From contig JAMCYU010000004.1 of assembly GCA_023473585.1 (NCBI GenBank), positions 66,033 through 130,032 of the forward strand: a stretch of DNA of 64,000 nt, given 5' to 3'. The notes beneath the pieces were generated by a model that worked only from the letters and a program-made list of their open reading frames with translations, did not search any database and was not told the origin of the DNA. Positions 17,278 through 63,886 of this stretch are shown here, in pieces. Both the position numbers and the translations under genes were made by a program. The stretch is from Patescibacteria group bacterium. Its GTDB lineage: Bacteria > Patescibacteriota > Microgenomatia > JAMCYU01. How positions within the stretch are numbered: the stretch's first letter is position 1; each line of letters starts with the position of its first letter.

Positions 17278-19260
17278 ATGATGTTTAAGTTGCGTTCTTC
17301 TTTTAAGCCGATCGGCGACCAGCCGCAGGCCATTAAAGGCCTAATTGACGGCCTTAAGAAAGACTATTCTGATCAGGTTCTTCTGGGTGTGACCGGTTCC
17401 GGGAAAACCTTTACCTTGGCTAATGTCATCGCCCATCTTCAAAAACCGACTTTGGTTATTTCCCATAACAAAACTTTGGCCGCCCAGCTTTATCAGGAAT
17501 TTCGCGATTTCTTTCCCCAAAACGCCGTTTCTTATTTTGTTTCTTATTATGATTATTATCAACCGGAATCATATCTTCCCCAAACCGATACCTATATCGA
17601 AAAGGAAACGGAAATCAACGATTTAATCGATAAGCTAAGGCTTCAGGCAACGACGAATTTAATGACCAGAAAAGATACGATTATTGTGGCTTCGGTTTCA
17701 TGTATTTACAATATCGGCTCGCCGAAAGAATACGGTCATTTTGTTCTTAATCTTGAATTAGGCCAAAGTATCGAAAGAGAACAAATTTTAAAAAAATTGG
17801 TAAGGCTTCAATATGAAAGATCGGACTATGTCTTTATTCAGGGAACTTATCGTGTCAGAGGAGAAACTTTGGATATTTTTCCGGCTTACGAAGATTTTGC
17901 TTACCGTGTGGAATTGGAAAACGCCCGGGTTAAAATGATTTCTAAAATTGACCCTTTAAATAGTCAGAAACTTAAAAGTGCCAAGGCAGAAGTTAAAACT
18001 CTGGTTATCTATCCGGCCAAACATTATATGACTGACCCGGAAACAACGGAAAAATCTTTTGGTCAGATAAGGGAAGATTTAGAAAAACAGTTGCAAAAAT
18101 TTAAAAAAGAAAGAAAATTTTTAGAAGCCCAAAGGCTTAAAAGCCGGGTTAACTACGATTTGGAAATGATTAAGGAAGTGGGTTTCGTCAACGGCATTGA
18201 AAATTATTCAAGATATTTCGACGGTAGGCAAGCAGGAGATCCGCCCTTTACCCTTTTGGATTATTTTAACGAGCCTTATAAAAAAGACTGGTTATGCGTG
18301 ATTGATGAATCTCATATGACGGTGCCGCAACTTAACGGCATGTATCGTGGTGACCGCTCGCGCAAGGAAACCTTAATCAATTTTGGTTTTCGACTACCCG
18401 CGGCTTTGGATAACCGGCCCCTGAAATTTGACGAATTTACAAGACGTCTTCCTCAAACCATTTACGTTTCCGCCACCCCTTCTCCTTGGGAAATCAGCCG
18501 TTCTCAACAGGTTGTCGAACAACTGATAAGGCCGACCGGTCTTTTGGATCCGGAAATTATTCTTAAAGAAAGCCAGGGACAAATTGATGATTTAATCCAA
18601 AGAATTGACGAAAGAGTTAAAGCCGGTGAAAGAGTTTTGGTGACGACCTTAACAAAAAGAATGGCAGAGGATTTAGCTGCCTATCTGGAGGAAAGAGGCA
18701 CCAAAGTTCATTATCTTCATGCGGACGTTGAGACTTTGGACCGAACGGACATTCTTGATGACTTAAGAGAGGGAAAATATGATGTTTTGGTTGGTATCAA
18801 TCTCTTAAGAGAGGGTCTTGATTTACCGGAAGTTTCGCTGGTGGCCATTCTGGATGCTGATAAGGAAGGTTTTTTACGTTCGGAAACAAGCTTAATTCAA
18901 ACCATGGGCCGGGCGGCCCGTCATCTTCACGGACAAGTTGTCATGTACGCTGATAAAATTACCGGATCAATGCAACGGGCCATTGATGAGGTTGGGCGCC
19001 GGCGAAAAAAACAATTGGCTTATAATCTAAAATTTAAGATCACACCTGCGTCAATTAAAAAACCCATCAGGGAAAAATTAGTCAAAAGACCCAAAATAAA
19101 GGAAGAAAAGGAAAAACTTTCTAAAATTGAAGTTGACCAGCTGACGCCTGAAGATAAAAAGAGATTACTGGCAAGGTTAAATCGGCAAATGCGGGAGGCT
19201 TCAAAAAATTTAGATTTTGAACTGGCGGTAAAAATTAGAGATCAAATTAAGAAATTGTGA
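17278..19260 (+). CDS. uvrB: excinuclease ABC subunit B
   Basis: 660 aa; VTGSGKTF Walker A, helicase motifs, C-terminal UVR domain. Confidence 0.9.
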   Translation: MMFKLRSSFKPIGDQPQAIKGLIDGLKKDYSDQVLLGVTGSGKTFTLANVIAHLQKPTLVISHNKTLAAQLYQEFRDFFPQNAVSYFVSYYDYYQPESYLPQTDTYIEKETEINDLIDKLRLQATTNLMTRKDTIIVASVSCIYNIGSPKEYGHFVLNLELGQSIEREQILKKLVRLQYERSDYVFIQGTYRVRGETLDIFPAYEDFAYRVELENARVKMISKIDPLNSQKLKSAKAEVKTLVIYPAKHYMTDPETTEKSFGQIREDLEKQLQKFKKERKFLEAQRLKSRVNYDLEMIKEVGFVNGIENYSRYFDGRQAGDPPFTLLDYFNEPYKKDWLCVIDESHMTVPQLNGMYRGDRSRKETLINFGFRLPAALDNRPLKFDEFTRRLPQTIYVSATPSPWEISRSQQVVEQLIRPTGLLDPEIILKESQGQIDDLIQRIDERVKAGERVLVTTLTKRMAEDLAAYLEERGTKVHYLHADVETLDRTDILDDLREGKYDVLVGINLLREGLDLPEVSLVAILDADKEGFLRSETSLIQTMGRAARHLHGQVVMYADKITGSMQRAIDEVGRRRKKQLAYNLKFKITPASIKKPIREKLVKRPKIKEEKEKLSKIEVDQLTPEDKKRLLARLNRQMREASKNLDFELAVKIRDQIKKL

Positions 19261-28626: not shown

Positions 28627-28713
28627 GGGCAAGTGGCGAAACTGGCAGACGCGCAGGCTTCAGGAGCCTGTTCCCTTTAACAAGGAATGGAGGTTCGAGT
28701 CCTCTCTTGCCCA
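28627..28713 (+). tRNA. tRNA-Leu (CAG)
   Basis: Class II cloverleaf: acceptor GGGCAAG/CUUGCCC, anticodon loop UUCAGGA, long variable arm, T-loop UUCGAGU. Confidence 0.8.
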
Positions 28714-28718
28714 CTTAA

Positions 28719-28805
28719 GCCGAGGTGGTGAAATCGGTAGACACGCAGCCTTGAGGAGGCTGTACCCTTAAACAAGGTGTGCAGGTTCAAATCCTGTCCT
28801 CGGCA
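28719..28805 (+). tRNA. tRNA-Leu (GAG)
   Basis: Acceptor GCCGAGG/CCUCGGC, anticodon loop UUGAGGA, long variable arm. Confidence 0.8.
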
Positions 28806-28888
28806 CAGCATAAGTGGGAGTTCGTTTACCCCGCTGATTGCGGAGCAATTTTGCGGGGAGTCTCCCCGAGAGCACTTAAAATAGAGAA

Positions 28889-29066
28889 TGACCGCTTAGC
28901 TCAACGGTGGAGCGCGACATTTACACCGCGCCTGCACTGGCCGGTTAGTTCAGTTGGTAGAACGCCTCGTTTACATCGAGGAAGTCGGAGGTTCGAGTCC
29001 TCCATCGGCCACAGTTTCGGCGGGCAGGTCGAAGAGGTTGGTGGTTCGAATCCACCAGCGGTCACC
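28889..29066 (+). other. two tRNA-half-like segments flanking tRNA-Val (5' half 28889-28938, 3' half 29012-29066 ending in encoded CCA)
   Basis: GACCGCU (5') and AGCGGUC-A-CCA (3') are perfectly complementary acceptor-like strands. The 5' piece has a canonical D-arm, the 3' piece a canonical T-arm GGUGGUUCGAAUCCACC. No canonical anticodon arm can be assembled. Confidence 0.3.
28939..29011 (+). tRNA. tRNA-Val (UAC)
   Basis: Acceptor GGCCGGU/AUCGGCC, anticodon loop UUUACAU, T-loop UUCGAGU. Confidence 0.8.
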
Positions 29067-29072
29067 AGAAGC

Positions 29073-29933
29073 TTATATTTTCGTTTTTTTCCATCGGCGG
29101 TAAAGAATAACTCCACCCAAAACCGGCACCCAGATAACCCCATAAACCATAATCCAAATTCCCTTTTCGGCCAAACCTCTTCCGGTATTGATTAAGGATC
29201 TGACGGCTAATTTAAAGACGACGGCCGGTCTAAAAGCCTGGCTTGGAGCGTAGGGAAGAGCCATTTCGTCTGAAGATAAATAAATCGTGATTTTTGATAA
29301 ACTGGCGGTTTGTTCCAAATATTTTTGCCTGCCTTTTAAAGCATCAATTTGATCCTGAAGACCAATCAGCTCCCGTTGAACCGTTAAGAGGTCCTGAACT
29401 TGTGCCGCCTTGTTCATAATTTCTTCAAATTTACTTTTGGTCGCTTCCAAAGTTTTTAAACGGGCCTCCAAATCAACATATTGGTCGGTTACGTCTGTTC
29501 CCATAACATTTTCTGAAGTAACCTTAACGGCAAGTTTTCGGTATTCGTCAATCGTCCCTTTAACTTTATCGGCGGGTATTCTTACCACAACTGTGGCAAA
29601 AGGCGCTTCTTCGGGTTGGCTAATAGTGCTTGAAACCATAAAACCGCCGTTCGTTTTGGCCAGATCGATGATTTTGTCAGCAACTTCCTTGACTTTTAAA
29701 ACGACCAAAGACATTGAGGTTTCTTCAACGATAATTCTTTTAGCCTGGTTCGTCGGCGCCGATTCTTGCTGAAAAGAAAGACGCGAAGGAAGGGGAGCGG
29801 AAGAAAAAAATTCGGAATAATTGGTTACCCTAGATAAACCGAAAGGAGAAACGCCAAAATAGGGCCGTAAGATAAAATAAACCAGGGCTATAAGAAGAAG
29901 GGAAGAGAGTTTGTGATTTTTAATCCAATCCAT
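29073..29933 (-). CDS. DUF4349-like membrane-anchored coiled-coil protein
   Basis: Start assigned to the internal Met (MDWIKNHK...) because the longer ORF runs into tRNA-Phe. N- and C-terminal TM segments with a central coiled coil. Confidence 0.45.
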   Translation of the reverse strand: MDWIKNHKLSSLLLIALVYFILRPYFGVSPFGLSRVTNYSEFFSSAPLPSRLSFQQESAPTNQAKRIIVEETSMSLVVLKVKEVADKIIDLAKTNGGFMVSSTISQPEEAPFATVVVRIPADKVKGTIDEYRKLAVKVTSENVMGTDVTDQYVDLEARLKTLEATKSKFEEIMNKAAQVQDLLTVQRELIGLQDQIDALKGRQKYLEQTASLSKITIYLSSDEMALPYAPSQAFRPAVVFKLAVRSLINTGRGLAEKGIWIMVYGVIWVPVLGGVILYRRWKKTKI

Positions 29934-29968
29934 AACTTCATGATAAAATTGAATAAAGTGTTTGTCAA

Positions 29969-29997
29969 GTAAACCCAAATTTGGTAGAATAAGTCGT
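29969..29997 (+). promoter_or_regulatory. sigma70-like promoter upstream of tRNA-Phe
   Basis: TTGTCA, 17 nt spacer, extended -10 TGgTAGAAT. Confidence 0.4.
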
Positions 29998-30023
29998 GTA
30001 CTTCCAAAACAAAGTTTGTACAT

Positions 30024-30096
30024 GCCGAGGTAGCCAAGGCGGTCACGGCGCGTGTCTGAAAAACATGAGATGACAGTTCGATTCTGTCCCTCGGCA
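30024..30096 (+). tRNA. tRNA-Phe (GAA)
   Basis: Acceptor GCCGAGG/CCUCGGC, anticodon loop CUGAAAA, T-loop UUCGAUU. Confidence 0.75.
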
Positions 30097-30162
30097 CTAG
30101 AAATTTACTCAGGAAACGTCTTTTGCGAAAATTATTTTTCGCAAGTAAATTTCTAGTGTGAA
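30094..30162 (+). repeat. ~65-nt palindromic hairpin element (paralog at 39277-39337)
   Basis: CACTAGAAATTTACT...AGTAAATTTCTAGTG outer 15-bp inverted repeat with a nested CTTTTGCGAAAA/TTTTTCGCAAG inverted repeat; begins at the 3' end of tRNA-Phe. Confidence 0.5.
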
Positions 30163-30213
30163 CACGTTTTAAAAGAAGATGTTTACACTGAAAAATCGTT
30201 TAGATTTTTTAGT

Positions 30214-30284
30214 GCGGGTGTGGTTTAATGGTAAAATAACTCCCTTCCAAGGAGTTGACGGCAGTTCGATTCTGCTCACCCGCT
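30214..30284 (+). tRNA. tRNA-Gly (UCC)
   Basis: Acceptor GCGGGUG/CACCCGC, anticodon loop CUUCCAA. Confidence 0.8.
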
Positions 30285-30349
30285 CAAGTCGTTGAGCGAG
30301 GCTCGCTAAAGGCGGCCCGCTCCCGAGTCAAACTCGGTTCGTAAAAGTT

Positions 30350-30420
30350 TTCGGGATCGTCTAGCGGTAGGACAGCAGCCTTTGGAGCTGCGAACCTAGG
30401 TTCGAATCCTAGTCCCGAAG
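30350..30420 (+). tRNA. tRNA-Gln (UUG)
   Basis: U1-A72 start as in bacterial tRNA-Gln, D-loop AGCGGUA, anticodon loop CUUUGGA. Confidence 0.7.
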
Positions 30421-30454
30421 CCGATTCGACTCGCGAAAGAATCATATTAATTAT

Positions 30455-30540
30455 GCCGGGGTGGCGGAACTGGCAGACGCGCAGGACTTAAAATCCTGTG
30501 ATGCTAACACATCGTGAGGGTTCGAGTCCCTCTCTCGGCA
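30455..30540 (+). tRNA. tRNA-Leu (UAA)
   Basis: Class II; anticodon loop CUUAAAA, long variable arm, T-loop UUCGAGU. Confidence 0.75.
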
Positions 30541-30598
30541 CAAAGGATGTTAATAATTATCACTTGCTAAATAGCGTGAGGTAATATACACTTAAGAC

Positions 30599-31024
30599 GT
30601 GAAAGACCTTAAGGAAATAAGAAGTGTTATACCGCTAATCATATGGTGGTGTGAAGGGACAAAACCCAGACGTGATAAGAGGTGGAAAAACGCAGTCCTT
30701 TGCCCAATAGAGGTTAGCAACACTGATCCAAAAATTATTAAAATATTTAGAGATTATCTTGTACAAGAATTGGGGGTTTCAGAAAAAGGTATAAAGGGTC
30801 AACTGCAAGTTCATGAAGGAGATAATAAAAGTGAACTTGAGATTTATTGGTCAAAAATAACCGATATTCCATTGAGTCAATTCAATAAAACTATCATAAG
30901 AAAAATCGGAAATAAACCTGGAAAGAGTAAAGGAACTTTCAAATTAAGATTTTACAATAAAAGAGTATATAAAAAACTAGAAAGCTCTTTAACTAAATTT
31001 TTGAAGCTCTTTAACGGAGTGTAG
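30599..31024 (+). CDS. hypothetical protein embedded in tRNA cluster
   Basis: 141 aa ORF, GTG start 8 nt after a TATACA -10. Its stop codon lies inside the 5' end of tRNA-Pro. No recognisable domain. Confidence 0.3.
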   Translation: MKDLKEIRSVIPLIIWWCEGTKPRRDKRWKNAVLCPIEVSNTDPKIIKIFRDYLVQELGVSEKGIKGQLQVHEGDNKSELEIYWSKITDIPLSQFNKTIIRKIGNKPGKSKGTFKLRFYNKRVYKKLESSLTKFLKLFNGV

Positions 31025-31091
31025 CGCAGTTGGCTAGCGCGCCTCGTTTGGGACGAGGAGGTCCCCGGTTCAAGTCCGGGCACTCCGACCA
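31015..31091 (+). tRNA. tRNA-Pro (UGG), CCA encoded
   Basis: C1-G72 pair typical of bacterial tRNA-Pro, anticodon loop UUUGGGA, 3' end ...CACUCCG-A-CCA. Confidence 0.8.
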
Positions 31092-31140
31092 ACTTAAAAG
31101 TGAGGGTTTGGTTCATAGCAGAACAATTCACTAGGGTTAC

Positions 31141-31212
31141 GCGGGAGTAGTTCAGCAGTAGAACGTTTCCTTGCCAAGGAAAAGGTCGCGGGTGCGAATC
31201 CCGTCTCCCGCT
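31141..31212 (+). tRNA. tRNA-Gly (GCC)
   Basis: Acceptor GCGGGAG/CUCCCGC, anticodon loop UUGCCAA. Confidence 0.8.
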
Positions 31213-31278
31213 CAAGCGCCTTTGGCGACTTGAGCGAGGCTCGCCTCGCCTGAAAGGCGGGCGGCCCGCTCTATATTT

Positions 31279-31530
31279 ATGTTTATTGTTTACGTCCTTC
31301 AAAGTCTCAAAGATAACAAGACATACGTTGGATATACCGACAATTTTGAGAGACGATTCAAACAGCATAATTCAGGGAAATCAAAATCTACAAAAAATCG
31401 AGCGCCATTTAAATTACTCTTCGAAGAAGAATTTGAAAATTCAGTTGAAGCGAAAAAACGAGAGTTGTGGTGGAAAAGCGGAATTGGAAGAAAGAAACTG
31501 AAGGAGTATTTTGATAAGATCAAGAAATGA
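31279..31530 (+). CDS. GIY-YIG nuclease family small protein (YhbQ/UPF0213-like)
   Basis: 83 aa; IVYVLQSLKDNKTYVGYTDNFERRFKQHN matches the GIY-YIG (GIY...YVG..R...H) pattern. Follows tRNA-Gly and a GC-rich hairpin. Confidence 0.65.
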   Translation: MFIVYVLQSLKDNKTYVGYTDNFERRFKQHNSGKSKSTKNRAPFKLLFEEEFENSVEAKKRELWWKSGIGRKKLKEYFDKIKK

Positions 31531-31853
31531 CAGAAAAGATATGTTTTAAGCGAGGGCTCTTTGGAGCGCTTCCCGGATATTTTTGCCGCCAAACCAACCT
31601 TTAAGATATAAAATTGTGTGTTTGTTCCGATGCCAGTCCTGAAGATAATATTTATCAATACGTCCACCCCTTTTTAAGAAAATAGCGATTAGTTCATCGA
31701 TAGAGGATTTTGTATTTATACCTTATTATAACACACCCAAAATTTAATTTCTCCGAGAGCTTGATAAGCTTCTTGTAACTTGATAAAATAGTTTTAATTG
31801 CCTCGAGCAGACGCGTTACAACGCGATTTGGTATAATCAAATCGCTAGTTTTT

Positions 31854-31927
31854 GCTCTCGTAGCTCAATTGGATAGAGCAGAGGGTTTCTAACCTTCAGG
31901 TTGCGTGTTCGAATCACGCCGAGAGCG
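31854..31927 (+). tRNA. tRNA-Arg (UCU)
   Basis: Acceptor GCUCUCG/CGAGAGC, anticodon loop UUUCUAA. Preceded by extended -10 TGgTATAAT embedded in the 8-bp inverted repeat GCGATTTG...CAAATCGC. Confidence 0.75.
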
Positions 31928-32047
31928 CAAAAAGAAGCGCGCGGTTGGGGGGTTCGCTTGCCCCGTAGACGACTTTAAGGAGTTCTTCGGGGAGTCCCTC
32001 TGGAGGCGCACGATAAGTTGGGAAAAGACAGGTGTTTTATCCCATAT

Positions 32048-32120
32048 GGTGGATGTAGCTCACCAGTAGAGCGCCCGCCTGTGAAGCGGGAGGAAGCGGG
32101 AGCATCACCCGTCATCCACC
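32048..32120 (+). tRNA. tRNA-His (GUG) with encoded G-1; atypical D- and T-loops
   Basis: 8-bp acceptor including G-1:C73 (His hallmark) and anticodon loop CUGUGAA. D-loop ACCAGUA lacks G18G19; T-loop AGCAUCA lacks the UUC motif. Confidence 0.5.
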
Positions 32121-32153
32121 CATAAAGACTTAGGCCGTTACGACGACATATAG

Positions 32154-41077: not shown

Positions 41078-41106
41078 TTGACAAGCCTATAATATTATGA
41101 TATAAT
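41078..41106 (+). promoter_or_regulatory. consensus sigma70 promoter
   Basis: TTGACA, 17 nt spacer, TATAAT (perfect consensus). Confidence 0.5.
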
Positions 41107-41112
41107 CCCCGC

Positions 41113-41290
41113 CAGATCCTGAGGTACGGAGGTATTTCACTTCCTACTTTAGGATTTTTTTATGGGCTTGTTAATGAGCCGGTAGGCAAGTTTTTACAAG
41201 CCCAAATCCTGCCAAAGCGCCCCTCGGAGGCAAGGACATAAGACTTTGCGACGAGGCAAGCGGAGGCGGATAGGAAGAGAGGTCAAGCTT
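41113..41290 (+). promoter_or_regulatory. ~180-nt structured 5' leader of the second GH73-like gene
   Basis: Long hairpin GAUCCUGAGGUA...UACUUUAGGAU followed by U7 (41124-41160); 7-codon uORF MGLLMSR (41162-41185); 8-bp stem GGGCUUGU/ACAAGCCC; three GGCAAG repeats; SD GAAGAGAGG before the ATG. Confidence 0.3.
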
Positions 41291-41833
41291 ATGAAAAAAC
41301 AGATCTGGTTGGCAGTTTTCGTTTTAACTGCCCTAATGATTCTTATCTCTCCCTCCTTTGTTATGGCTTCGGAGGGTAAAGAAGCCGCCAGCTCGGCTGA
41401 TATCTTTGTGGGTCAAGCGCCAAATCCTAATGTTGATAGATTGCGCCGGTTTTTGGCCTATTACGATTCGCCTTTGGCAAACTATGCGCCGGTTTTTGTT
41501 GAAAAGGCTTCTCGGTATAACTTAGACTGGAAATTGATTCCGGCCATTACGGGTGTGGAATCGACCTTCGGCAAGGCCATTCCTTTTAACTCCTATAACG
41601 CCTATGGCTGGGCTAACGGGGAATACTCTTTTAAGTCCTGGGAAGAATCAATTGAGGTTGTTTCAAAAACCTTAAGAGAAAACTATGCCAATAGGGGTGC
41701 TGATACCGTTGAAAAAATAGCGCCGATTTATGCTCCTCCTTCCCAAACCTGGGCCGGCAAGGTTTTGTATTTTATGGACAAAATTGAAAATTTTGCTCCT
41801 AACAAAACGATTGCTTTGGAACTTTCACTATAA
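41291..41833 (+). CDS. secreted GH73-like glucosaminidase-domain protein, paralog 2
   Basis: Signal peptide MKKQIWLAVFVLTALMILIS; ITGVEST..NAYGWANG core; conserved YAPPS near the C-terminus shared with paralog 1. Confidence 0.4.
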   Translation: MKKQIWLAVFVLTALMILISPSFVMASEGKEAASSADIFVGQAPNPNVDRLRRFLAYYDSPLANYAPVFVEKASRYNLDWKLIPAITGVESTFGKAIPFNSYNAYGWANGEYSFKSWEESIEVVSKTLRENYANRGADTVEKIAPIYAPPSQTWAGKVLYFMDKIENFAPNKTIALELSL

Positions 41834-56902: not shown

Positions 56903-59554
56903 TTAAAGCGGGGACGGCGTCGGCGCCGGGGTGGGGACAGGGGTCGGCGTCGGCGCCGCCCAATCCCAGGGAACAAAAACACCAAATTTAATTTCCGCAT
57001 CAGAAGCGTTGCCTTTGGAATCCTGGGCTTTAATTTTAAGAGTGTGTGTTCCTTTAGCCATGTTTATTCTTTCGGAAAATTTATTGGTGGAAAGCGTCCG
57101 ATTGACTAAACCATCAATAATTATTTCCAGTTTGACAATTTCTCCAACCGCCGAATAAGCTTCGGTTTCAACCAAGACATCATTGTCGTTTATCTGCGAC
57201 CGATCGCCGGGACTCTTAATTTTGACAATGGCTCGATCAAGTTTATCCTGCGAAGTTTCTTTCGGGGGATGATATTTGCTGTCGGTATTTGAAGCTAACC
57301 AAGCGTCAATGCCCTCCTGCCAGCGATTTTTCCCGTCGGTTGAGACCGGGTCCTGTTCAGTTAAGACAATAAAGTCTTTCTCCTCGTATTCTCCCATGGC
57401 AATTTCACTTTGATTAGCTAATTTACCATTATTTTTGGAAATTTTAAGTTTTTGATAAATTGCGGCTGGCTGTGTCGGTTCGGTACCGGAGATAAAATAT
57501 TCACTTCTGGTCGGAAAACCCTCTTTAGGCAACCCTCCACCAAAAGCATCGATCGTTGAGGCAACAACATTTGCGGGAACGATAGGTGGCTCGTCCGGTT
57601 TATCTTTTAAAATAAAGCGCATAATTTTATTCCAAATTGGCGCGGCGCCGGTAACCCCGGAAGCCAAAGAAGGATGCATGGCCGAATTATCGTTATTGCC
57701 AACCCACACGCCAACCACAAAACTGGGAGTAAAACCAACAGTCCAATTGTCTTTTTTATCATCGGTCGTTCCGGTCTTGACCGAGACGGTTTTCCCCGGC
57801 ACAACCAACCAGGAACTTGGACCAAAAATTTCTTTTCTGGCTTCATTGTCTAAAAGAATATGAGAAATTAAAAAAGAGACTTCCGGTGACAAAACTTTTT
57901 GTCCGGAGGTCGGTTTCGTTTCGAAAAGAGTTTTACCGCGCGAATCCTGAACTTTAAGAATAGAGGTCGGTTCATGCCGAACGCCGCTTTGGCCAAAAAC
58001 GCCGAAAGCGCTGGTTAGATCTAAAAGCTTAACTTCGCCGCCACCAAGGGTTAAAGCCAAACCGAAACGGCTCAAGTTTTCATTCGTCGGCTGAAGCGTT
58101 GTCAACCCCATATCATAAGCGGTCACTAAAGCTTCTTTAACCCCGACCATCGCCAACATCTTAACGGCCGCAATGTTAATTGAATTAGCCAAAGCAAATC
58201 TGACCTGAACCGGACCTCTGAATTTCCCGTCATAATTTTTAGGAATATAGTCGGGCTTATTCTCGCCACCAGGGAAATGAGTTTCCGTATCCATTAAAAG
58301 CGTGGCCGGTGTGTATCCTTTCTGAAAAGCGGTCGCGTAAATAATCGGTTTAATCGCCGAGCCCGGCTGGCGCAATCCCTGGGTCACGACGTTAAATTTA
58401 AAACCAGAAGAATCCGTCGCATTATAGTCCTTAGAACCAACCATCGCCAAAATCTGACCGGTTTTAGGATCCAAAACCGCGGCGGCGCCGTTGGTGACCT
58501 TAAGACTTTTAAGTTTCCCAATCTCTTCCTTGACGATTTTTTCCGCCTCTTCCTGAATCTTCCAATCTAGTGTCGTTGTGACTTTAAGACCGCCCTGTTC
58601 GATCATCTTCTCGCCGAATTGGGCAATCAATTTTTCCTTAACGTACATGACAAAATGAGGCGCCCGAAAATTGGTATCGGTTTCAGAAAACTTAACGTTA
58701 GTAATGTCTTTTTTGGCCTGTTCTTCCTGATCTTTTGAGATATAACCGTCCTCACGCATTCTTCGCAAAACCTGTCCGGTCCGCCAAATATAGGCCTTAG
58801 GATCCGAACCGAAAAGGGGAGAGTATTTGGTCGGCGCGTTCGGCAGTCCGGCCAAAATGACCGACTCTAAAAAACTTAAATCTTTGGTGTGTTTGCCAAA
58901 ATAGGTTTGGGAGGCTGTCTCGACCCCCCAAGCCGTCCCGCCATAGGGAGCCTCGTTTAAATACATCTGCAAAATCTCGTCTTTGGAATATTTTCTTTCA
59001 ATCTGAATCGCCAAAATAAACTCTTTAATTTTCCGAGGCAAGGTCCGTTCGCTTGTTAACAAGACGTTTTTCACCAGCTGTTGAGTTAAGGTCGAACCGC
59101 CCTGAAGGTTTCTAAAAACAAAGATGTTAACCAAGGCCCTCCCCATACCGCTAAAGGAAAAACCCTGATGTTTATAAAATTCTTTATCCTCAATGGCCAC
59201 GGTCGCCTGACGCAAAGATTGGGGCATATCGGCAAAAGAAACCGGAACCCGATTTTGATCCCCGTAAATGTCGTATAAAACCTCGCCGTTTTTGTCGGTA
59301 ATAACCGTTGATAAACCTTCAACCCGATGAACCTTATCCGGACGGGGCAAATCTTTACTGTACCAGGCAAAAAGGAAAACCACGAAAAAAACTAAAGCCA
59401 AACTTCCCAAAAGAACCAGGGTGCTTAACTGCGACCAGCGCTTGATCCGTTCCAGTCTTGAAGAAGAACCGAAATGGGAGCGTTTCCAGCGTTTTTCCTG
59501 AAAAACATCAAGCATATCTTCACTTGGAGAAATTTTGGTTTCGATTTTCTCCAT
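56903..59554 (-). CDS. class A penicillin-binding protein (PBP1A-like) with C-terminal Ig-like/Pro-Thr-rich extension
   Basis: GT51 motifs EDKEFYKHQGF and GGSTLTQQ; transpeptidase SAIKP, SIN, KTGTT; C-terminal TPTPVPTPAPTPSP. Confidence 0.85.
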   Translation of the reverse strand: MEKIETKISPSEDMLDVFQEKRWKRSHFGSSSRLERIKRWSQLSTLVLLGSLALVFFVVFLFAWYSKDLPRPDKVHRVEGLSTVITDKNGEVLYDIYGDQNRVPVSFADMPQSLRQATVAIEDKEFYKHQGFSFSGMGRALVNIFVFRNLQGGSTLTQQLVKNVLLTSERTLPRKIKEFILAIQIERKYSKDEILQMYLNEAPYGGTAWGVETASQTYFGKHTKDLSFLESVILAGLPNAPTKYSPLFGSDPKAYIWRTGQVLRRMREDGYISKDQEEQAKKDITNVKFSETDTNFRAPHFVMYVKEKLIAQFGEKMIEQGGLKVTTTLDWKIQEEAEKIVKEEIGKLKSLKVTNGAAAVLDPKTGQILAMVGSKDYNATDSSGFKFNVVTQGLRQPGSAIKPIIYATAFQKGYTPATLLMDTETHFPGGENKPDYIPKNYDGKFRGPVQVRFALANSINIAAVKMLAMVGVKEALVTAYDMGLTTLQPTNENLSRFGLALTLGGGEVKLLDLTSAFGVFGQSGVRHEPTSILKVQDSRGKTLFETKPTSGQKVLSPEVSFLISHILLDNEARKEIFGPSSWLVVPGKTVSVKTGTTDDKKDNWTVGFTPSFVVGVWVGNNDNSAMHPSLASGVTGAAPIWNKIMRFILKDKPDEPPIVPANVVASTIDAFGGGLPKEGFPTRSEYFISGTEPTQPAAIYQKLKISKNNGKLANQSEIAMGEYEEKDFIVLTEQDPVSTDGKNRWQEGIDAWLASNTDSKYHPPKETSQDKLDRAIVKIKSPGDRSQINDNDVLVETEAYSAVGEIVKLEIIIDGLVNRTLSTNKFSERINMAKGTHTLKIKAQDSKGNASDAEIKFGVFVPWDWAAPTPTPVPTPAPTPSPL

Positions 59555-59583
59555 TCTTTAAGTTTATCAGAACAAGGCTCTAT

Positions 59584-59612
59584 TTGACAAGTCAAAAAGC
59601 AATCGGTATAAT
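59584..59612 (+). promoter_or_regulatory. consensus sigma70 promoter
   Basis: TTGACA, 17 nt spacer, TATAAT. Confidence 0.5.
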
Positions 59613-59619
59613 TAAACCC

Positions 59620-59703
59620 ATGTTGTCAACCACCCAAACTCTTTTTTGGTTTTATTATACCTTCCAAAAAGGGAGGTTGGTTGACGTGGTTATAGAACAC
59701 TAA
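59620..59703 (+). CDS. putative leaderless leader peptide (27 aa, aromatic-rich) of a racemase-tyrS attenuator
   Basis: ATG 7 nt after the -10. Encodes MLSTTQTLFWFYYTFQKGRLVDVVIEH. Codons 17-22 form the hairpin ACCUUCC-AAAAA-GGGAGG. Confidence 0.35.
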   Translation: MLSTTQTLFWFYYTFQKGRLVDVVIEH

Positions 59704-59728
59704 ACATTAATCATTAAATTAAAACCAG

Positions 59729-59752
59729 CCTCCCAAAAAGGGAGGTTTTTTT
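59729..59752 (+). terminator. intrinsic terminator (attenuator) upstream of the racemase gene
   Basis: CCUCCC-AAAAA-GGGAGG followed by UUUUUUU. The 5' arm can alternatively pair with GGGAGG at 59671-59676. Confidence 0.6.
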
Positions 59753-59769
59753 GTGGAAAAAGGAGAATT

Positions 59770-60468
59770 ATGAAAACAGCTGGAATTATCGGTGGTTTTG
59801 GACCGGAGACAACGACTAAGTTTCAACTAGAAATAGTTGAGATTTTTCGTGCTTTAAAGATCAAAGAAAGACCAGCTCTTCTAATTTGGCAAACACCTAT
59901 CCCCGTAAAAATTGAACAAAGAATGATTCTTCAGGGCCAGGGAATCTCAAAATTTTTACCTTTTTTAATTGACGGGGCTCAAAAATTAGAAAATGGTGGG
60001 GCTGATTTTTTGGTTCTACCGTGCAATACGTTGCACATCTTAATTGATGACTTACGGAAATCAATTAATCTTCCGCTTATAAACCTTATTGAAGAAACGG
60101 CCAAAGACCTGGTTCGCAAAAAAATTAAAAGCATCGGGATCCTTGGAAGCCAAGAAACAATCAAAAGCCGTCTGCATCAGCAATTATTATCTAGAAAAGG
60201 AATCATTCCCATCTTGCCAAACGAAAACGAACAAAAGTTAATTAATAAAGTCATTAGCCAAATCCTGACTAATAAAAACTTAAGCGAAACCGAAAAGACC
60301 TTAAGAAGAGTAGTTAAAAACCTAGAGGCTAGGGGAACGAAAAACATTCTCCTGGCCTGCACCGATTTACAACTTGTTTTCCCCAAAATAAAAGGCATTG
60401 AAATCCACGATACATTGTCGATTTTAGCCCAAGCAACCGCAAGAGAAATTCTTAAAAAGAAGCTTTAA
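59770..60468 (+). CDS. aspartate/glutamate racemase family protein (aspartate racemase-like)
   Basis: 232 aa with the two catalytic Cys motifs LPCNTLH and LACTDL. SD AAAAAGGAG. Confidence 0.7.
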   Translation: MKTAGIIGGFGPETTTKFQLEIVEIFRALKIKERPALLIWQTPIPVKIEQRMILQGQGISKFLPFLIDGAQKLENGGADFLVLPCNTLHILIDDLRKSINLPLINLIEETAKDLVRKKIKSIGILGSQETIKSRLHQQLLSRKGIIPILPNENEQKLINKVISQILTNKNLSETEKTLRRVVKNLEARGTKNILLACTDLQLVFPKIKGIEIHDTLSILAQATAREILKKKL

Positions 60469-60490: not shown

Positions 60491-61726
60491 ATGAATTTAT
60501 CTATGGACAACATTGACGAACTTTTAACCAGGGGGGTAGAGAAAATATACCCTTCCAAAGAAGCTCTTGAAACCGTTTTGAGAACCGGGAAAAAATTGCG
60601 GATCTATCAGGGCTTTGACCCAACCGCCCCGGAATTACATCTCGGCCACATGATCGGTTTAAGAAAACTTCGCCAATGGCAAGACCTGGGACACGAAGTT
60701 ATCTTCTTAATCGGTGACTTTACCGGGATGATTGGCGACCCGTCCGGAAAAGATAAAACCCGTATCCCCCTAACCCGTGAACAGGTTTTATTAAATGCCA
60801 AAACCTATCAAGAACAAGCGAGAAGAGTTCTGCGTTTTAGCGGAGAAAATCCGGTCCAACTTAAATTTAACAGCACCTGGTTGGGCAAATTATCGGCAGA
60901 AGAACTTTTAAGATTAACCTCAAACTTAACCTATCAACAGGTTATTGAAAGAGATATGTTCCAAAAGCGGCTTGAGAAAAAGATGGATATTTCGCTCGTT
61001 GAATTTTTCTATCCCTTCATGCAGGGATACGATTCGGTCGCTATGGATATTGACGTGGAAGTTGGAGGCAGCGATCAATTATTTAACATGATGACCGGAC
61101 GAGACCTGATGCGTAAATTAAAAAAGAAAGAAAAATTCGTGATGACAACGCCTCTTTTGACGGATTCTTCCGGCCGTAAAATTGGCAAAACCACAGGCAA
61201 TATTATTACCCTAACGGCGCCTGCCAATGACTTTTACGGCCTGATTATGAGTTTGGGAGATGACGTGATCGTCAGGTGTTTTGAATACTTAACGGATTTA
61301 CCCTTGGATGAAGTCAATGAAATTAGGGAAAAAATCAAAAAGGGCGAAAACCCTATGGTTTACAAGAAAAAGCTCGCCCGCAAACTCACGGCCATGCTAA
61401 ATAGCGAGGCATCGGCCGAAGAAGCAGAAAAGGAATTCGAAAGAGTCCACCAGAAAGGGCAGATTCCAGAACAAGTCTCCATATTTAAACTCTCAAACAA
61501 GATAACTGACTTTTATGATTTGTTAGTTAAAAGTCAGATAGCGAGTTCTAGGGGAGAAGCTAAAAGACTTATCGAACAAAGGGCAATTAAAGTTAACGGT
61601 AAAACTGTTAAAAACAGTTGGGATTATAAAATCTCACAGGGGACAATTATGGAGAATTCTCAACCTATTACCGGAGGGATCACTATCCAGAAGGGACCCA
61701 CAAAATTTATTAAAATAGAATCTTAA
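60491..61726 (+). CDS. tyrS: tyrosine--tRNA ligase
   Basis: HLGH (HIGH) motif, KIGKT (KMSKS-like), C-terminal S4 domain. Confidence 0.9.
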   Translation: MNLSMDNIDELLTRGVEKIYPSKEALETVLRTGKKLRIYQGFDPTAPELHLGHMIGLRKLRQWQDLGHEVIFLIGDFTGMIGDPSGKDKTRIPLTREQVLLNAKTYQEQARRVLRFSGENPVQLKFNSTWLGKLSAEELLRLTSNLTYQQVIERDMFQKRLEKKMDISLVEFFYPFMQGYDSVAMDIDVEVGGSDQLFNMMTGRDLMRKLKKKEKFVMTTPLLTDSSGRKIGKTTGNIITLTAPANDFYGLIMSLGDDVIVRCFEYLTDLPLDEVNEIREKIKKGENPMVYKKKLARKLTAMLNSEASAEEAEKEFERVHQKGQIPEQVSIFKLSNKITDFYDLLVKSQIASSRGEAKRLIEQRAIKVNGKTVKNSWDYKISQGTIMENSQPITGGITIQKGPTKFIKIES

Positions 61727-61833: not shown

Positions 61834-61855
61834 AACCTTGTGCTATACTAGCCTC

Positions 61856-63886
61856 ATGGAGCTCGCAACGCCCGTTCAAAACGTCTACATGGTCGGTCCG
61901 ACTTACGCAAAAAGACTGGAAAAATTAGGTCTTAAAACCGTCGAGGATTTGCTGTTTCATTTTCCCCACCGCTACGAAGACTATTCTTTAATTTCCAAAA
62001 TTAACCAGATTAAACCCGGAGAAACAGTTACCATTCAGGGAATCGTTAACGAAATTAAAAATGAATACACGAAAAACGGCAAAAAAATCCAAAAAGCCTT
62101 AGTTTCTGACGGGACAAAAATTTTAGAAGTTACCTGGTTTAATCAGCCTTTTTTGATAAGAACGATTAAAGTGGGGGAGACCTACAATTTTTCCGGCAAA
62201 GTCAATTGGTTCGGCCATAAAGTAAGCTTAATCAGCCCCGAATACGAACAGGTCTCGGGTCAAAGATATGAAACTTTGGGCTCAATTCATACCGGCAGAC
62301 TCGTTCCCATCTATTCGGAAACTTACGGCGTTACCTCCAAATGGTTGCGTTCAAGAATTGCCCCCCTTTTAAATGAATACCTGCCTTTATTTACCGAATA
62401 TCTGCCGGATAAGGTTATCAGTAAAAATCAACTTTTGGCTTACCAAAAAGCGATTAGGCAAATTCATTTCCCCGATAATCAATATTTCGCGGATGCGGCT
62501 AAAAAGAGACTGGCTTTTGACGAATTATTTCTTATTCAACTGGCCTCTCTTAAAAGAAAAAAAAGGCAAGAAAAAGAAAAAGTTAAATATCAATTTAAAA
62601 TAGACCCGTACCAAACCTCAATCGAAACCTTTATCAAAAAATTACCGTTTGTCTTAACTAGAGCGCAACAAAGAGTCGTACGGGAGATATTTCATGATCT
62701 TGCTCAACCCAAACCTATGAATCGTCTGCTTGAGGGCGACGTCGGTTCCGGAAAAACGGTGGTCGCCGCAATCAGCATGTATTTTTCTTATCTTAACGGC
62801 TGTCAGTCCCTTTTGCTGGCACCGACCGAAATTTTAGCCAACCAGCATTTTAAGACCCTGAAAGACCTGCTTTCTCCTTTCGGCGTGAAAGTTAATTTGC
62901 GAAGCGGAAGCTTCAAAAAAGAGGAAGAATTTGATATTTTAGTCGGGACTCACGCTCTTTTATCGGAAAAAATTAAGATTCAGAAATTAGGCCTGGTTGT
63001 TGTTGACGAACAACACCGCTTCGGGGTTGAGCAAAGAAAACAAATTCGAGAGAAAGGAGTTAATCCGCATCTTTTGTCGATGACCGCCACCCCTATTCCC
63101 CGAACCGTAGCCTTGACTTTATACGGCGATCTTGATCTGTCTTTTTTAGACGAAATGCCCAAGGGTCGAATGAAGGTCAAAACCTGGGTTGTCCCCTCAT
63201 TAAAAAGAGAGGCGGCTTATGCCTGGATAAAAAAACGGGTAAAAGGAACCAAAGAACAGGCTTTTATTATCTGCCCCCTAATTGAAGAGTCGGAAACTTT
63301 AGTTTCCGTTAGGGCGGCCACTCAGGAATTTGAAAGTCTGCAAAAGAAAATTTTTCCGGATCTTCGCTTGGGCCTTCTTCATGGCCGGATGAAAGCTCGG
63401 GATAAAGATTTGGAAATTGAACGCTTTCGGTCGGGCAAATTGGATATTTTGGTTGCCACGCCGGTCGTTGAGGTCGGGATTGATATTCCCCAGGCAACCA
63501 TCATGATGATTGAGGGAGCGGAAAGATTCGGCTTGGCGCAACTGCATCAATTAAGAGGTCGGGTCGGCCGGGCAAATCTTGTCTCTTATTGTCTTCTTTT
63601 TAGTGAATCCGAGCAAAATCAAAGACTTAAGGCCATGGAAAAAATCCATATCGGCGCCAATTTGGCCGAAGTCGACCTGCAGATGCGCGGTCCGGGTGAA
63701 GTTTTAGGAACCAAACAACACGGCATCCCTGATTTGAGAGTTGCCTCCTTAACCGATAAGCTTTTGATTACCGAAACGAGGTTGGCCGCTCAAGAAACCA
63801 TCAATGAAGATTTGTCTTTGAAGAAATTTCCCCTCTTGAAAGAAAAGCTTGAAAGATTTACAATAAAAGCGGTTTCATCTGATTAG
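61856..63886 (+). CDS. recG: ATP-dependent DNA helicase RecG
   Basis: N-terminus MELATPVQNVYMVGPTYAKRLEKLGLKTVEDLLFHFPHRYED; helicase motifs GDVGSGKT, DEQHRFG. Confidence 0.9.
   Translation: MELATPVQNVYMVGPTYAKRLEKLGLKTVEDLLFHFPHRYEDYSLISKINQIKPGETVTIQGIVNEIKNEYTKNGKKIQKALVSDGTKILEVTWFNQPFLIRTIKVGETYNFSGKVNWFGHKVSLISPEYEQVSGQRYETLGSIHTGRLVPIYSETYGVTSKWLRSRIAPLLNEYLPLFTEYLPDKVISKNQLLAYQKAIRQIHFPDNQYFADAAKKRLAFDELFLIQLASLKRKKRQEKEKVKYQFKIDPYQTSIETFIKKLPFVLTRAQQRVVREIFHDLAQPKPMNRLLEGDVGSGKTVVAAISMYFSYLNGCQSLLLAPTEILANQHFKTLKDLLSPFGVKVNLRSGSFKKEEEFDILVGTHALLSEKIKIQKLGLVVVDEQHRFGVEQRKQIREKGVNPHLLSMTATPIPRTVALTLYGDLDLSFLDEMPKGRMKVKTWVVPSLKREAAYAWIKKRVKGTKEQAFIICPLIEESETLVSVRAATQEFESLQKKIFPDLRLGLLHGRMKARDKDLEIERFRSGKLDILVATPVVEVGIDIPQATIMMIEGAERFGLAQLHQLRGRVGRANLVSYCLLFSESEQNQRLKAMEKIHIGANLAEVDLQMRGPGEVLGTKQHGIPDLRVASLTDKLLITETRLAAQETINEDLSLKKFPLLKEKLERFTIKAVSSD

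Follow-up and report, generated by a model that had tools for sequence, protein, structure and literature searches.

A putative leader-peptide attenuator with an aromatic codon run upstream of a racemase-tyrS operon in Patescibacteria

How is the synthesis of tyrosine--tRNA ligase controlled in Patescibacteria? The question is raised by a 64,000-nt stretch of contig JAMCYU010000004.1 from a Patescibacteria group bacterium (hereafter the window; all coordinates are positions in it), where an operon encoding a predicted amino-acid racemase and the ligase TyrS is preceded by a short leader that contains a small open reading frame (ORF) between a promoter and an intrinsic terminator. To our knowledge, hardly anything is known about how Patescibacteria (the candidate phyla radiation, CPR) regulate their genes, because these bacteria cannot be cultured alone. 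An earlier note on this DNA had proposed attenuation, with a ribosome stalled on aromatic codons of the small ORF deciding between termination and readthrough. This logic is now supported by a family of at least about 69 similar loci, by the correlation between the codon run and the downstream gene in that family, by at least 12 racemase leaders with runs of the W-Y-Y type, and by T-boxes with UAC specifiers at the same operon in relatives. We consider it highly likely that the leader is a ribosome-mediated (leader-peptide) transcription attenuator of racemase-tyrS that senses tyrosyl or, more broadly, aromatic tRNAs. The features of the leader and the operon are the following (SD, Shine-Dalgarno sequence).

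59584-59612, plus strand: sigma-70 type promoter, TTGACA (59584-59589), 17-nt spacer, TATAAT (59607-59612), 12 of 12 positions in the promoter scan
59620-59703, plus strand: 27-codon leader ORF encoding the peptide MLSTTQTLFWFYYTFQKGRLVDVVIEH, stop codon at 59701
59625-59634, plus strand: segment 0, GUCAACCACC, which pairs with GGUUGGUUGAC (59675-59685) and lengthens the anti-antiterminator
59644-59664, plus strand: codon run UUU UGG UUU UAU UAU ACC UUC (F W F Y Y T F) inside the leader ORF
59659-59665, plus strand: segment 1, ACCUUCC (CCUUCC at 59660-59665), inside the ORF, partner of segment 2 or segment 4
59671-59685, plus strand: segment 2, GGGAGG (59671-59676) plus UUGGUUGAC, inside the ORF, an arm of both the anti-antiterminator and the antiterminator
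59723-59734, plus strand: segment 3, AACCAGCCUCCC (CCUCCC at 59729-59734), 5' arm of the terminator and 3' arm of the antiterminator
59740-59752, plus strand: segment 4, GGGAGG (59740-59745), 3' arm of the terminator, then U7 (59746-59752)
59727-59752, plus strand: intrinsic terminator, AGCCUCCC, loop AAAAA, GGGAGGUU, U7 (called by the terminator scan as 59727-59747 plus the T-run)
59760-59765, plus strand: SD of the racemase gene, AAGGAG, outside the terminator hairpin
59770-60468, plus strand: Asp/Glu-type amino-acid racemase, first gene of the operon (PF01177, 117.5 bits; TIGR00035, 164 bits)
60491-61726, plus strand: tyrS, tyrosine--tRNA ligase, second gene of the operon (TIGR00234, 350 bits)

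The promoter was described in the earlier note as a perfect consensus, and the scan bears this out: it is one of two perfect TTGACA-17-TATAAT promoters in the 64 kb, where sites with at most one mismatch number five against 0.37 expected (none of 100 shuffles gave five). The 27-codon ORF and its aromatic run are likewise present where they had been placed. The start codon, ATG 59620, follows the -10 box by 7 nt and lacks an upstream SD; we infer that the transcript begins at the AUG or 1 nt before it and that translation of the leader is leaderless. The promoter scan found no promoter between the leader terminator and the racemase gene and none other that would serve racemase-tyrS. The upstream neighbor of the leader, a gene for PBP1A, is transcribed divergently, and because no plus-strand gene ends upstream, the terminator can act only on the leader transcript. 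The two genes of the operon are separated by 22 nt that include an SD and no terminator.

Beyond this leader, leaderless mRNAs seem to be common in the genome: for 12 of the 49 long ORFs in the window, a candidate ATG follows a -10-like box by 6-8 nt, versus 2.2% of all ATGs, the former figure being somewhat inflated by the several candidate starts per ORF. Among these 12 candidate leaderless starts, which lack an SD and in which the box often reads TGnTAnnnT, is that of recG (ATG 61856; 61838-61860); others are at 17278, 27233, 35645, 39155, 40386 and 53430. The second perfect promoter of the window (41078-41295, plus strand) is directly followed by a 19-bp hairpin with U7 (41114-41161), then by two more hairpins and a gene for a secreted protein (ATG 41292); this 189-nt leader, with a predicted folding energy of -73.9 kcal/mol (z = -4.87), has neither an Rfam match nor a leader ORF.

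The RNA of the racemase-tyrS leader contains the four mutually exclusive segments that had been proposed, and their pairings are longer than originally listed. The 1:2 hairpin has a predicted energy of -9.5 kcal/mol, and the duplex formed by segments 0 and 1 together with segment 2 reaches -21.1 kcal/mol. The 2:3 antiterminator, a duplex of 12 bp between GGGAGGUUGGUU (59671-59682) and AACCAGCCUCCC, has an energy of -22.5 kcal/mol and agrees with the partner-swap and shuffle tests on the family described below. The 3:4 hairpin (-13.4 kcal/mol), which is also the match of the terminator scan, is the canonical terminator that the earlier note had recognized, ending 17 nt before the racemase start. 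Folding of the whole leader, one of the checks that the note had named, yields a structure more stable than those of its own shuffles (z = -2.87). Because segments 1 and 3 as well as segments 2 and 4 are near copies of each other, segment 1 is able to pair with segment 4; the minimum free energy (MFE) structure of the free full-length leader is 1:4 nested around 2:3, which also ends at the U-tract. When the Tyr codons are masked by a ribosome and the nascent RNA reaches 59734, the RNA folds into 2:3. In the MFE structure of the readthrough RNA, CUCUUUUUU (59639-59647, in the leader ORF) pairs with AAAAAGGAG (59757-59765, including the racemase SD); this pairing could be an additional translational layer or a chance match.

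The proposed switch would operate as follows. Transcription would begin at the leader AUG, and a 70S ribosome would translate the leaderless RNA. When charged aromatic tRNAs, above all Tyr-tRNA, are plentiful, the ribosome would proceed to the stop codon at 59701; segment 2 would then either be taken up by segments 0 and 1 or lie covered by the ribosome, and in both cases 3:4 would form and RNA polymerase would halt at U7 near 59752. When Tyr-tRNA is scarce, the ribosome would stall with UAU 59653 or 59656 in the A site. The codons of this UAU pair (59653-59658) begin 18 and 15 nt before segment 2, and a stalled ribosome of standard footprint size would extend to about 59665-59669, hiding segment 1 and not segment 2. 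The free GGGAGGUUGGUU would then form the antiterminator with AACCAGCCUCCC, leaving segment 4 unpaired and allowing readthrough into the racemase gene and tyrS; segment 4 would be left without a partner only if the ribosome hides segment 1 while segment 2 holds segment 3. This stalling geometry and the amino-acid response that goes with it are what we infer from the leader sequence. The suggestion that the aromatic run is the sensor is refined here: the codons at masking distance are the two UAU codons and not the entire run. The operon genes would be cognate to the sensed amino acid because tyrS is one of them and because relatives of the operon carry a Tyr T-box, tRNA-Tyr and D-aminoacyl-tRNA deacylase (Dtd).

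Evidence for this interpretation comes from a family of similar leaders. Metagenome contigs were scanned with the terminator alone (CCTCCC-N3-6-GGGAGGTTTTTTTGTGG), which yielded at least 120 loci; after de-duplication, at least about 69 non-redundant loci (designated L with a number where they have to be told apart), including the window leader, L024 and L071, display the complete architecture. Its first elements are a -10 box and, 5-10 nt further on (most often 7), the start codon; then come a codon run, a CCUC-loop-GGGAGG hairpin, an antiterminator and a CCUCCC-loop-GGGAGG-U7 terminator. The window leader has every one of these features. The leader peptides are mostly of 14-34 residues, with two longer ones, and in the 69 leaders the codons for the amino-acid run lie 9-27 nt upstream of segment 2. 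Three or more identical or aromatic residues are present in the run in 80% of the leaders versus 7.9% of the control windows; the figures for four or more are 45% and 0.5%. Two family members are from Candidatus Daviesbacteria and Candidatus Gottesmanbacteria. When scored on the first recognizable gene downstream of the leader, the runs pair with genes as follows.

Thr run: thrS (L092, 500 bits; L190, 495 bits)
Ile run: ileS (L172, 758 bits)
Leu/Val/Ile run: ilvB (L090, 747 bits)
V-V-V run: class IV aminotransferase (L083)
Ser run: serA (L094)
Pro run: proB (L108)
Y-Y-W-H run: hisC-like aminotransferase (L088)
F/W/Y run: DAHP synthase (9 loci among the matches listed)
W-Y-Y, W-Y-F and F-W-Y runs: racemases of the same clade as that of the window (at least 12 loci)

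Tyrosine codons also recur in front of tyrS itself. The leader F-Y-R-Y-Y-F of L159 is followed by a 191-aa ORF, an aminotransferase gene and a tyrS gene whose product is 73% identical to the window TyrS; W-A-Y-Y precedes tyrS in L114; and Tyr-rich leaders precede racemase-tyrS in L086 and tyrS in L110.

The alternative pairings in the family are locus-specific. The 2:3 duplex (segment 2 and its extension with segment 3 and its extension) formed by the partners of the same locus has an energy of -19.4 kcal/mol, compared to -16.4 kcal/mol when partners are swapped between loci (p = 7e-15) and -15.8 kcal/mol when the extension of the same locus is shuffled (p = 2e-12). Segment 0, too, pairs family-wide more stably with the extension of segment 2 than shuffled sequences do (-9.6 versus -6.95 kcal/mol, p = 3e-6) and than swapped partners do (p = 1e-7). 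These duplex-energy tests replaced a fixed-register test of the antiterminator extension, in which matched and swapped partners came out alike, the reason being a bulge that follows the first 6 bp in most loci. A covariance model, R1, was trained on the 5' halves of 40 family members, with the window excluded. These halves extend between the -10 box and the extension of segment 2, a region outside the retrieval pattern. R1 matches the window at 59604-59686 with 49.3 bits (E = 2.9e-6), the next match, at 17.3 bits, being the terminator itself. No further copy was found in the window with the pattern at three mismatches, with a relaxed regular expression or with R1 with filters off.

Several observations on the family stand apart from the argument. 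On high-GC contigs (L083, L090, L102 and L117), CCUCCC-loop-GGGAGG-U7-GUGG follows leader ORFs rich in Val, Leu or Ile before ilvB or ilvE-like genes, so that low-GC Microgenomates are not the only carriers of this architecture or of a convergent copy. A small ORF (55-160 aa) with a strong GGAGGTGA SD is the first gene after about 33 of the parsed leaders (not de-duplicated) and also after some T-boxes; examples are L190 (834-1094), L172 (4320-4532), L204 (1812-2048), L209 (90-263), L215 (1379-1600) and L110. These small ORFs often lie immediately upstream of a synthetase gene (thrS, ileS or tyrS) and show little similarity between loci, with two ending in GPGGP; neither they nor several large proteins encoded downstream of leaders have a Pfam or NCBIfam match.

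To place the window leader in its evolutionary context, the racemase was used as an anchor. The window racemase is identical to a protein annotated in NCBI as 'Patescibacteria group bacterium', and its relatives are from Levybacteria, Woesebacteria and Gottesmanbacteria (Microgenomates). In 529 kb of racemase-anchored loci, R1 matches only L024, L071 and L204-206. Among 80 species-representative loci, L024 and L071 have the design of the window leader in front of the racemase gene: the ATG directly follows a -10 box, the run reads W-Y-C-Y or W-Y-Y, and the CCUC-loop-GGGAGG hairpin is succeeded by CCUCCC-loop-GGGAGG-U7-GUGG. L001 and L016 have T-box leaders (78 bits) in this position. In the closest racemase homologs (50-65% identity), the elements are arranged as follows.

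L209: family-type terminator, 57-aa ORF, T-box (116.7 bits; specifier GAAAUACU), tRNA-Tyr(GUA), racemase
L204-206: leader peptide MLTNRHSKRFYFLLLRGRLVDVT followed by a stop codon, 78-aa ORF, T-box (96.2 bits; GAAUUACC), racemase, small ORFs of 77 and 127 aa, tyrS
L207/L208: T-box (96.9 bits), racemase, tyrS
L211: T-box, tRNA-Tyr, racemase, tyrS, recG
L215: T-box, 73-aa ORF, tRNA-Tyr, racemase, tyrS
L201-203: racemase, 49-aa ORF, D-aminoacyl-tRNA deacylase (TIGR00256, 181 bits), tyrS, recG
L214: DAHP synthase, racemase, tyrS

T-boxes with a UAC (Tyr) specifier score above the gathering score of 93 in L209, L207 and L204 and at 78-85 bits in L001, L016 and L210. Their presence on the racemase-tyrS operons of relatives indicates, independently of the window leader, that the operon is tuned to tRNA-Tyr charging, and judging by the gene arrangements this is the case in every lineage examined. 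The L204 leader is orthologous to that of the window. The two share promoter blocks (TTGACAAGT at -35 and GGTAnAAT at -10), GTyAACCAyC, TTTTAT, and an identical stretch, GGGAGGTTGGTTGACGTG, in the segment 2 region, and L204-206 are syntenic with the window, with PBP1A divergent and recG downstream. The comparison with related leaders that the earlier note had called for is provided both by this ortholog and by the wider family. The window lacks the small ORF, the T-box and the tRNA, and its upstream attenuator directly abuts the racemase gene; a deletion between two U-tracts is a plausible origin for this arrangement.

The T-box locus L210 additionally encodes a tRNA with a long arm (1750-1836) where L209, L211 and L215 have tRNA-Tyr(GUA). 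ARAGORN labels it 'SeC'; its anticodon is UCA, position 33 is G instead of U, and it scores 43.5 bits with the Rfam tRNA model; it could be a UGA-reading or a degenerate derivative of tRNA-Tyr. The window itself contains a cluster of eleven tRNAs (28627-32121, plus strand), namely Leu CAG, GAG and UAA, Gly UCC and GCC, and one each for Val, Phe, Gln, Pro, Arg and His, and no tRNA-Tyr was found anywhere in the 64 kb.

These associations bear on the function of the racemase as well. Because its clade (TIGR00035 type) is always tied to Tyr T-boxes, W-Y-Y leaders, tRNA-Tyr, D-aminoacyl-tRNA deacylase, tyrS or DAHP synthase, the genomic contexts suggest that these enzymes may be D/L-tyrosine (aromatic) racemases induced when Tyr-tRNA is in short supply; the label 'aspartate racemase' is probably wrong.

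The interpretation of the leader as an attenuator has to be weighed against several alternatives. Given that a structured RNA lies between a perfect promoter and a strong terminator and shows a weak, sub-threshold likeness to small RNA (sRNA) families in a permissive Rfam search, the leader might be a standalone sRNA gene of about 133 nt that acts in trans, with the ORF incidental and racemase-tyrS expressed by leak-through. However, such an RNA has no need for an open ORF, a start codon 5-10 nt past the -10 box or gene-matched runs, all of which are features of the family at large, and racemase-tyrS would be left without any promoter of its own; we regard this possibility as very unlikely, although the terminated leader RNA could have a second function. 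It is equally hard to believe that the nascent peptide, rather than the codons, is the sensor, in the manner of TnaC or SecM, with a motif of the N-W-Y-Y-G type arresting the ribosome in response to free tyrosine, tryptophan or another ligand. In 13 racemase leaders the peptide conserves a W and, after it, a Y, which is compatible with such arrest, but in the wider family the run changes along with the cognate synthetase or biosynthetic genes (to Thr, Ile, Leu, Phe, Cys, Met or Pro), and this is the signature of codon or tRNA sensing; moreover, the F-W-F-Y-Y-T-F run of the window differs from N-W-Y-Y-G, and a tRNA-sensing T-box occupies the same operon in relatives. 

The order of elements in L204 and L209 (orthologous leader, ORF of 57-78 aa, T-box, racemase), compared to the window, where the ORF and the T-box are missing, is what would be expected if the window retained merely a constitutive, partly leaky terminator left behind by the deletion of these two elements, with a codon run inherited from the control of another gene. 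Yet the segments, the ORF and the promoter are intact, the leader scores as a full member of the family under R1, it has two Tyr codons, at the regulatory distance typical of the family, where L204 has one, and in other lineages the racemase gene or tyrS is driven straight from such leaders, so that we consider a relic of this kind quite unlikely. Finally, a leader that binds a ligand, a protein or a tRNA directly, as in T-boxes or TRAP-like systems, with translation irrelevant, would also show terminator and antiterminator alternatives, which are common to all such systems, and T-boxes do occur at the same position in relatives. This explanation appears extremely unlikely to us because the window leader has no T-box or other above-threshold Rfam match, is only about 133 nt long, contains no conserved unpaired motif besides the codon run, and belongs to a family in which the ORF is kept throughout.

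Attenuation by the leader peptide remains by far the most probable mechanism in our estimate, and some of our results weigh against it. The codon run is mixed (two Tyr, three Phe, one Trp and one Thr codon), and for this reason specificity for tyrosine is presumptive. When a 28-nt mask is placed over the Tyr codons to mimic a ribosome, the full-length RNA at equilibrium still favors the terminator, with segment 0 paired to the extension of segment 2, so that readthrough requires a kinetic or steric argument, that is, the absence of pairing across the ribosome or a second ribosome over segment 0. Those family members that come from the metagenome scan were all chosen for an identical terminator. 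RNAalifold applied to 13 racemase leaders returned the nested 1:4 plus 2:3 fold with covariation in 2 of 19 pairs; the classical covariation signal is weak because the arms are nearly invariant. The orthologous L204 leader reads F-Y-F-L-L-L and controls the 78-aa ORF, located upstream of a T-box, and not tyrS; the direct fusion of the leader to racemase-tyrS therefore looks secondary, and the junction between leader and racemase in the window may be the product of a recent deletion.

A more elaborate version of the switch can be conceived, in which the ribosome participates through its own RNA. The GGGAGG segments are perfect SD sequences and (A)CCUCC(C) copies the anti-SD core of 16S rRNA; the 16S tail might join the switch, either by holding segment 2 while segment 3 is being made or by making the freed segment 4, together with a conserved GUG 7 nt downstream, a coupled start, and the whole would be a combined transcription and translation cassette that spread through the Microgenomates and is interchangeable with T-boxes. 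We consider this scenario unlikely. GUGG directly after the U-tract is seen in the window (59753-59756), in L024 and L071, which were found independently of the search pattern, and after the T-box terminator of L204 (2560-2580, UUUUUUGUGGGAAAAAUAUG), and is absent after the attenuator terminators of L204 and L209. The GUG past the U-tract is in frame in 13 of 65 loci and opens a frame whose stop overlaps the gene start in 19 of 65; the two classes combined account for 20 of 32 genes that lack an SD of their own versus 12 of 33 others, a comparison made without a proper null model.

If the proposed mechanism is correct, a tyrosine-sensing attenuator would be the first of its kind: we found no tyrosine attenuator in Rfam and, in the open-access literature, no paper on tyrosine-codon leader peptides and none on leader peptides, attenuation or T-boxes in Patescibacteria, CPR or Microgenomates. 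The statement in the earlier note that no attenuator of a racemase-tyrS operon had been described agrees with this literature. The leader belongs to a large and apparently undescribed family of putative switches in these bacteria. Firmicutes use T-boxes for the same role, and at the racemase-tyrS operon T-boxes and leader-peptide attenuators appear to replace each other. The codon runs could further serve as hints to the function of unannotated genes, and many small ORFs would be under amino-acid control.

Comparison with known systems helps to delineate what is new here. At gathering thresholds, Rfam detects only tRNAs in the window. In a permissive search, membership of the leader in Phe_leader (RF01859; 26.5 bits versus a gathering score of 55) and in Trp_leader (RF00513; 24.6 bits versus 41, 3' half only) was considered and rejected, these sub-threshold matches being driven largely by the terminator and U-rich stretches. 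A T-box (RF00230) was also sought and none was found in 59450-59900 even at E-values up to 10, nor is there a T-box sequence or a Stem I.

Classical attenuation is the mechanism of trp, pheA and pheST, with control of pheST known in gamma-proteobacteria. The leaders of pheST (pheM) and pheA of Escherichia coli resemble that of the window in combining an ORF with aromatic codons, segments that pair as 1:2, 2:3 and 3:4, and a terminator before a synthetase or amino-acid operon, and no Rfam family other than Phe_leader aligns with the window leader over its full length, although this alignment is weak. The E. coli Phe leaders are proteobacterial, SD-dependent and specific for Phe, whereas the window leader, from Patescibacteria, is predicted to be leaderless and precedes a racemase gene and tyrS; in its mixed F/W/Y run, Tyr occupies the key position. 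The trpL leader of E. coli represents the same mechanism with only two key codons; in both trpL and the window, 2:3 is about as stable as 1:2, so that the outcome would depend on kinetics. It differs in controlling a biosynthetic operon rather than a synthetase gene and in its SD-dependent leader ORF.

Outside Proteobacteria, leader-peptide attenuators of the synthetase genes trpS and leuS have been predicted by comparative genomics in Streptomyces, in a survey in which tyrosine is listed as T-box regulated (PMC1262725); as in the window, a synthetase is controlled, but the phylum and the amino acids are different and no sequence is shared. Leaderless polycysteine small ORFs (sORFs) of mycobacteria, which at many loci make up a ribosome-directed regulon, likewise place a sensory sORF at the 5' end of a leaderless mRNA, where a ribosome stalled in the codon run remodels the downstream RNA and controls translation (10.1101/834739). 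The window leader, with an intrinsic terminator, U7 and a racemase SD that lies outside the hairpin, does not fit this translational type; because its alternative structure is an intrinsic terminator with U7, control would be transcriptional. Functionally closest is the tyrS T-box (RF00230), through which tyrS also answers to tRNA-Tyr charging by means of a terminator and an antiterminator, and which is present at the same operon in L204, L207, L209, L210, L211, L215, L001 and L016; it differs in that it binds the uncharged tRNA directly and requires no translation. The mechanism proposed here is, in itself, a textbook one; what appears to be new is its use in Patescibacteria (Microgenomates), in combination with putative leaderless translation and with tyrosine and tyrS as the target.

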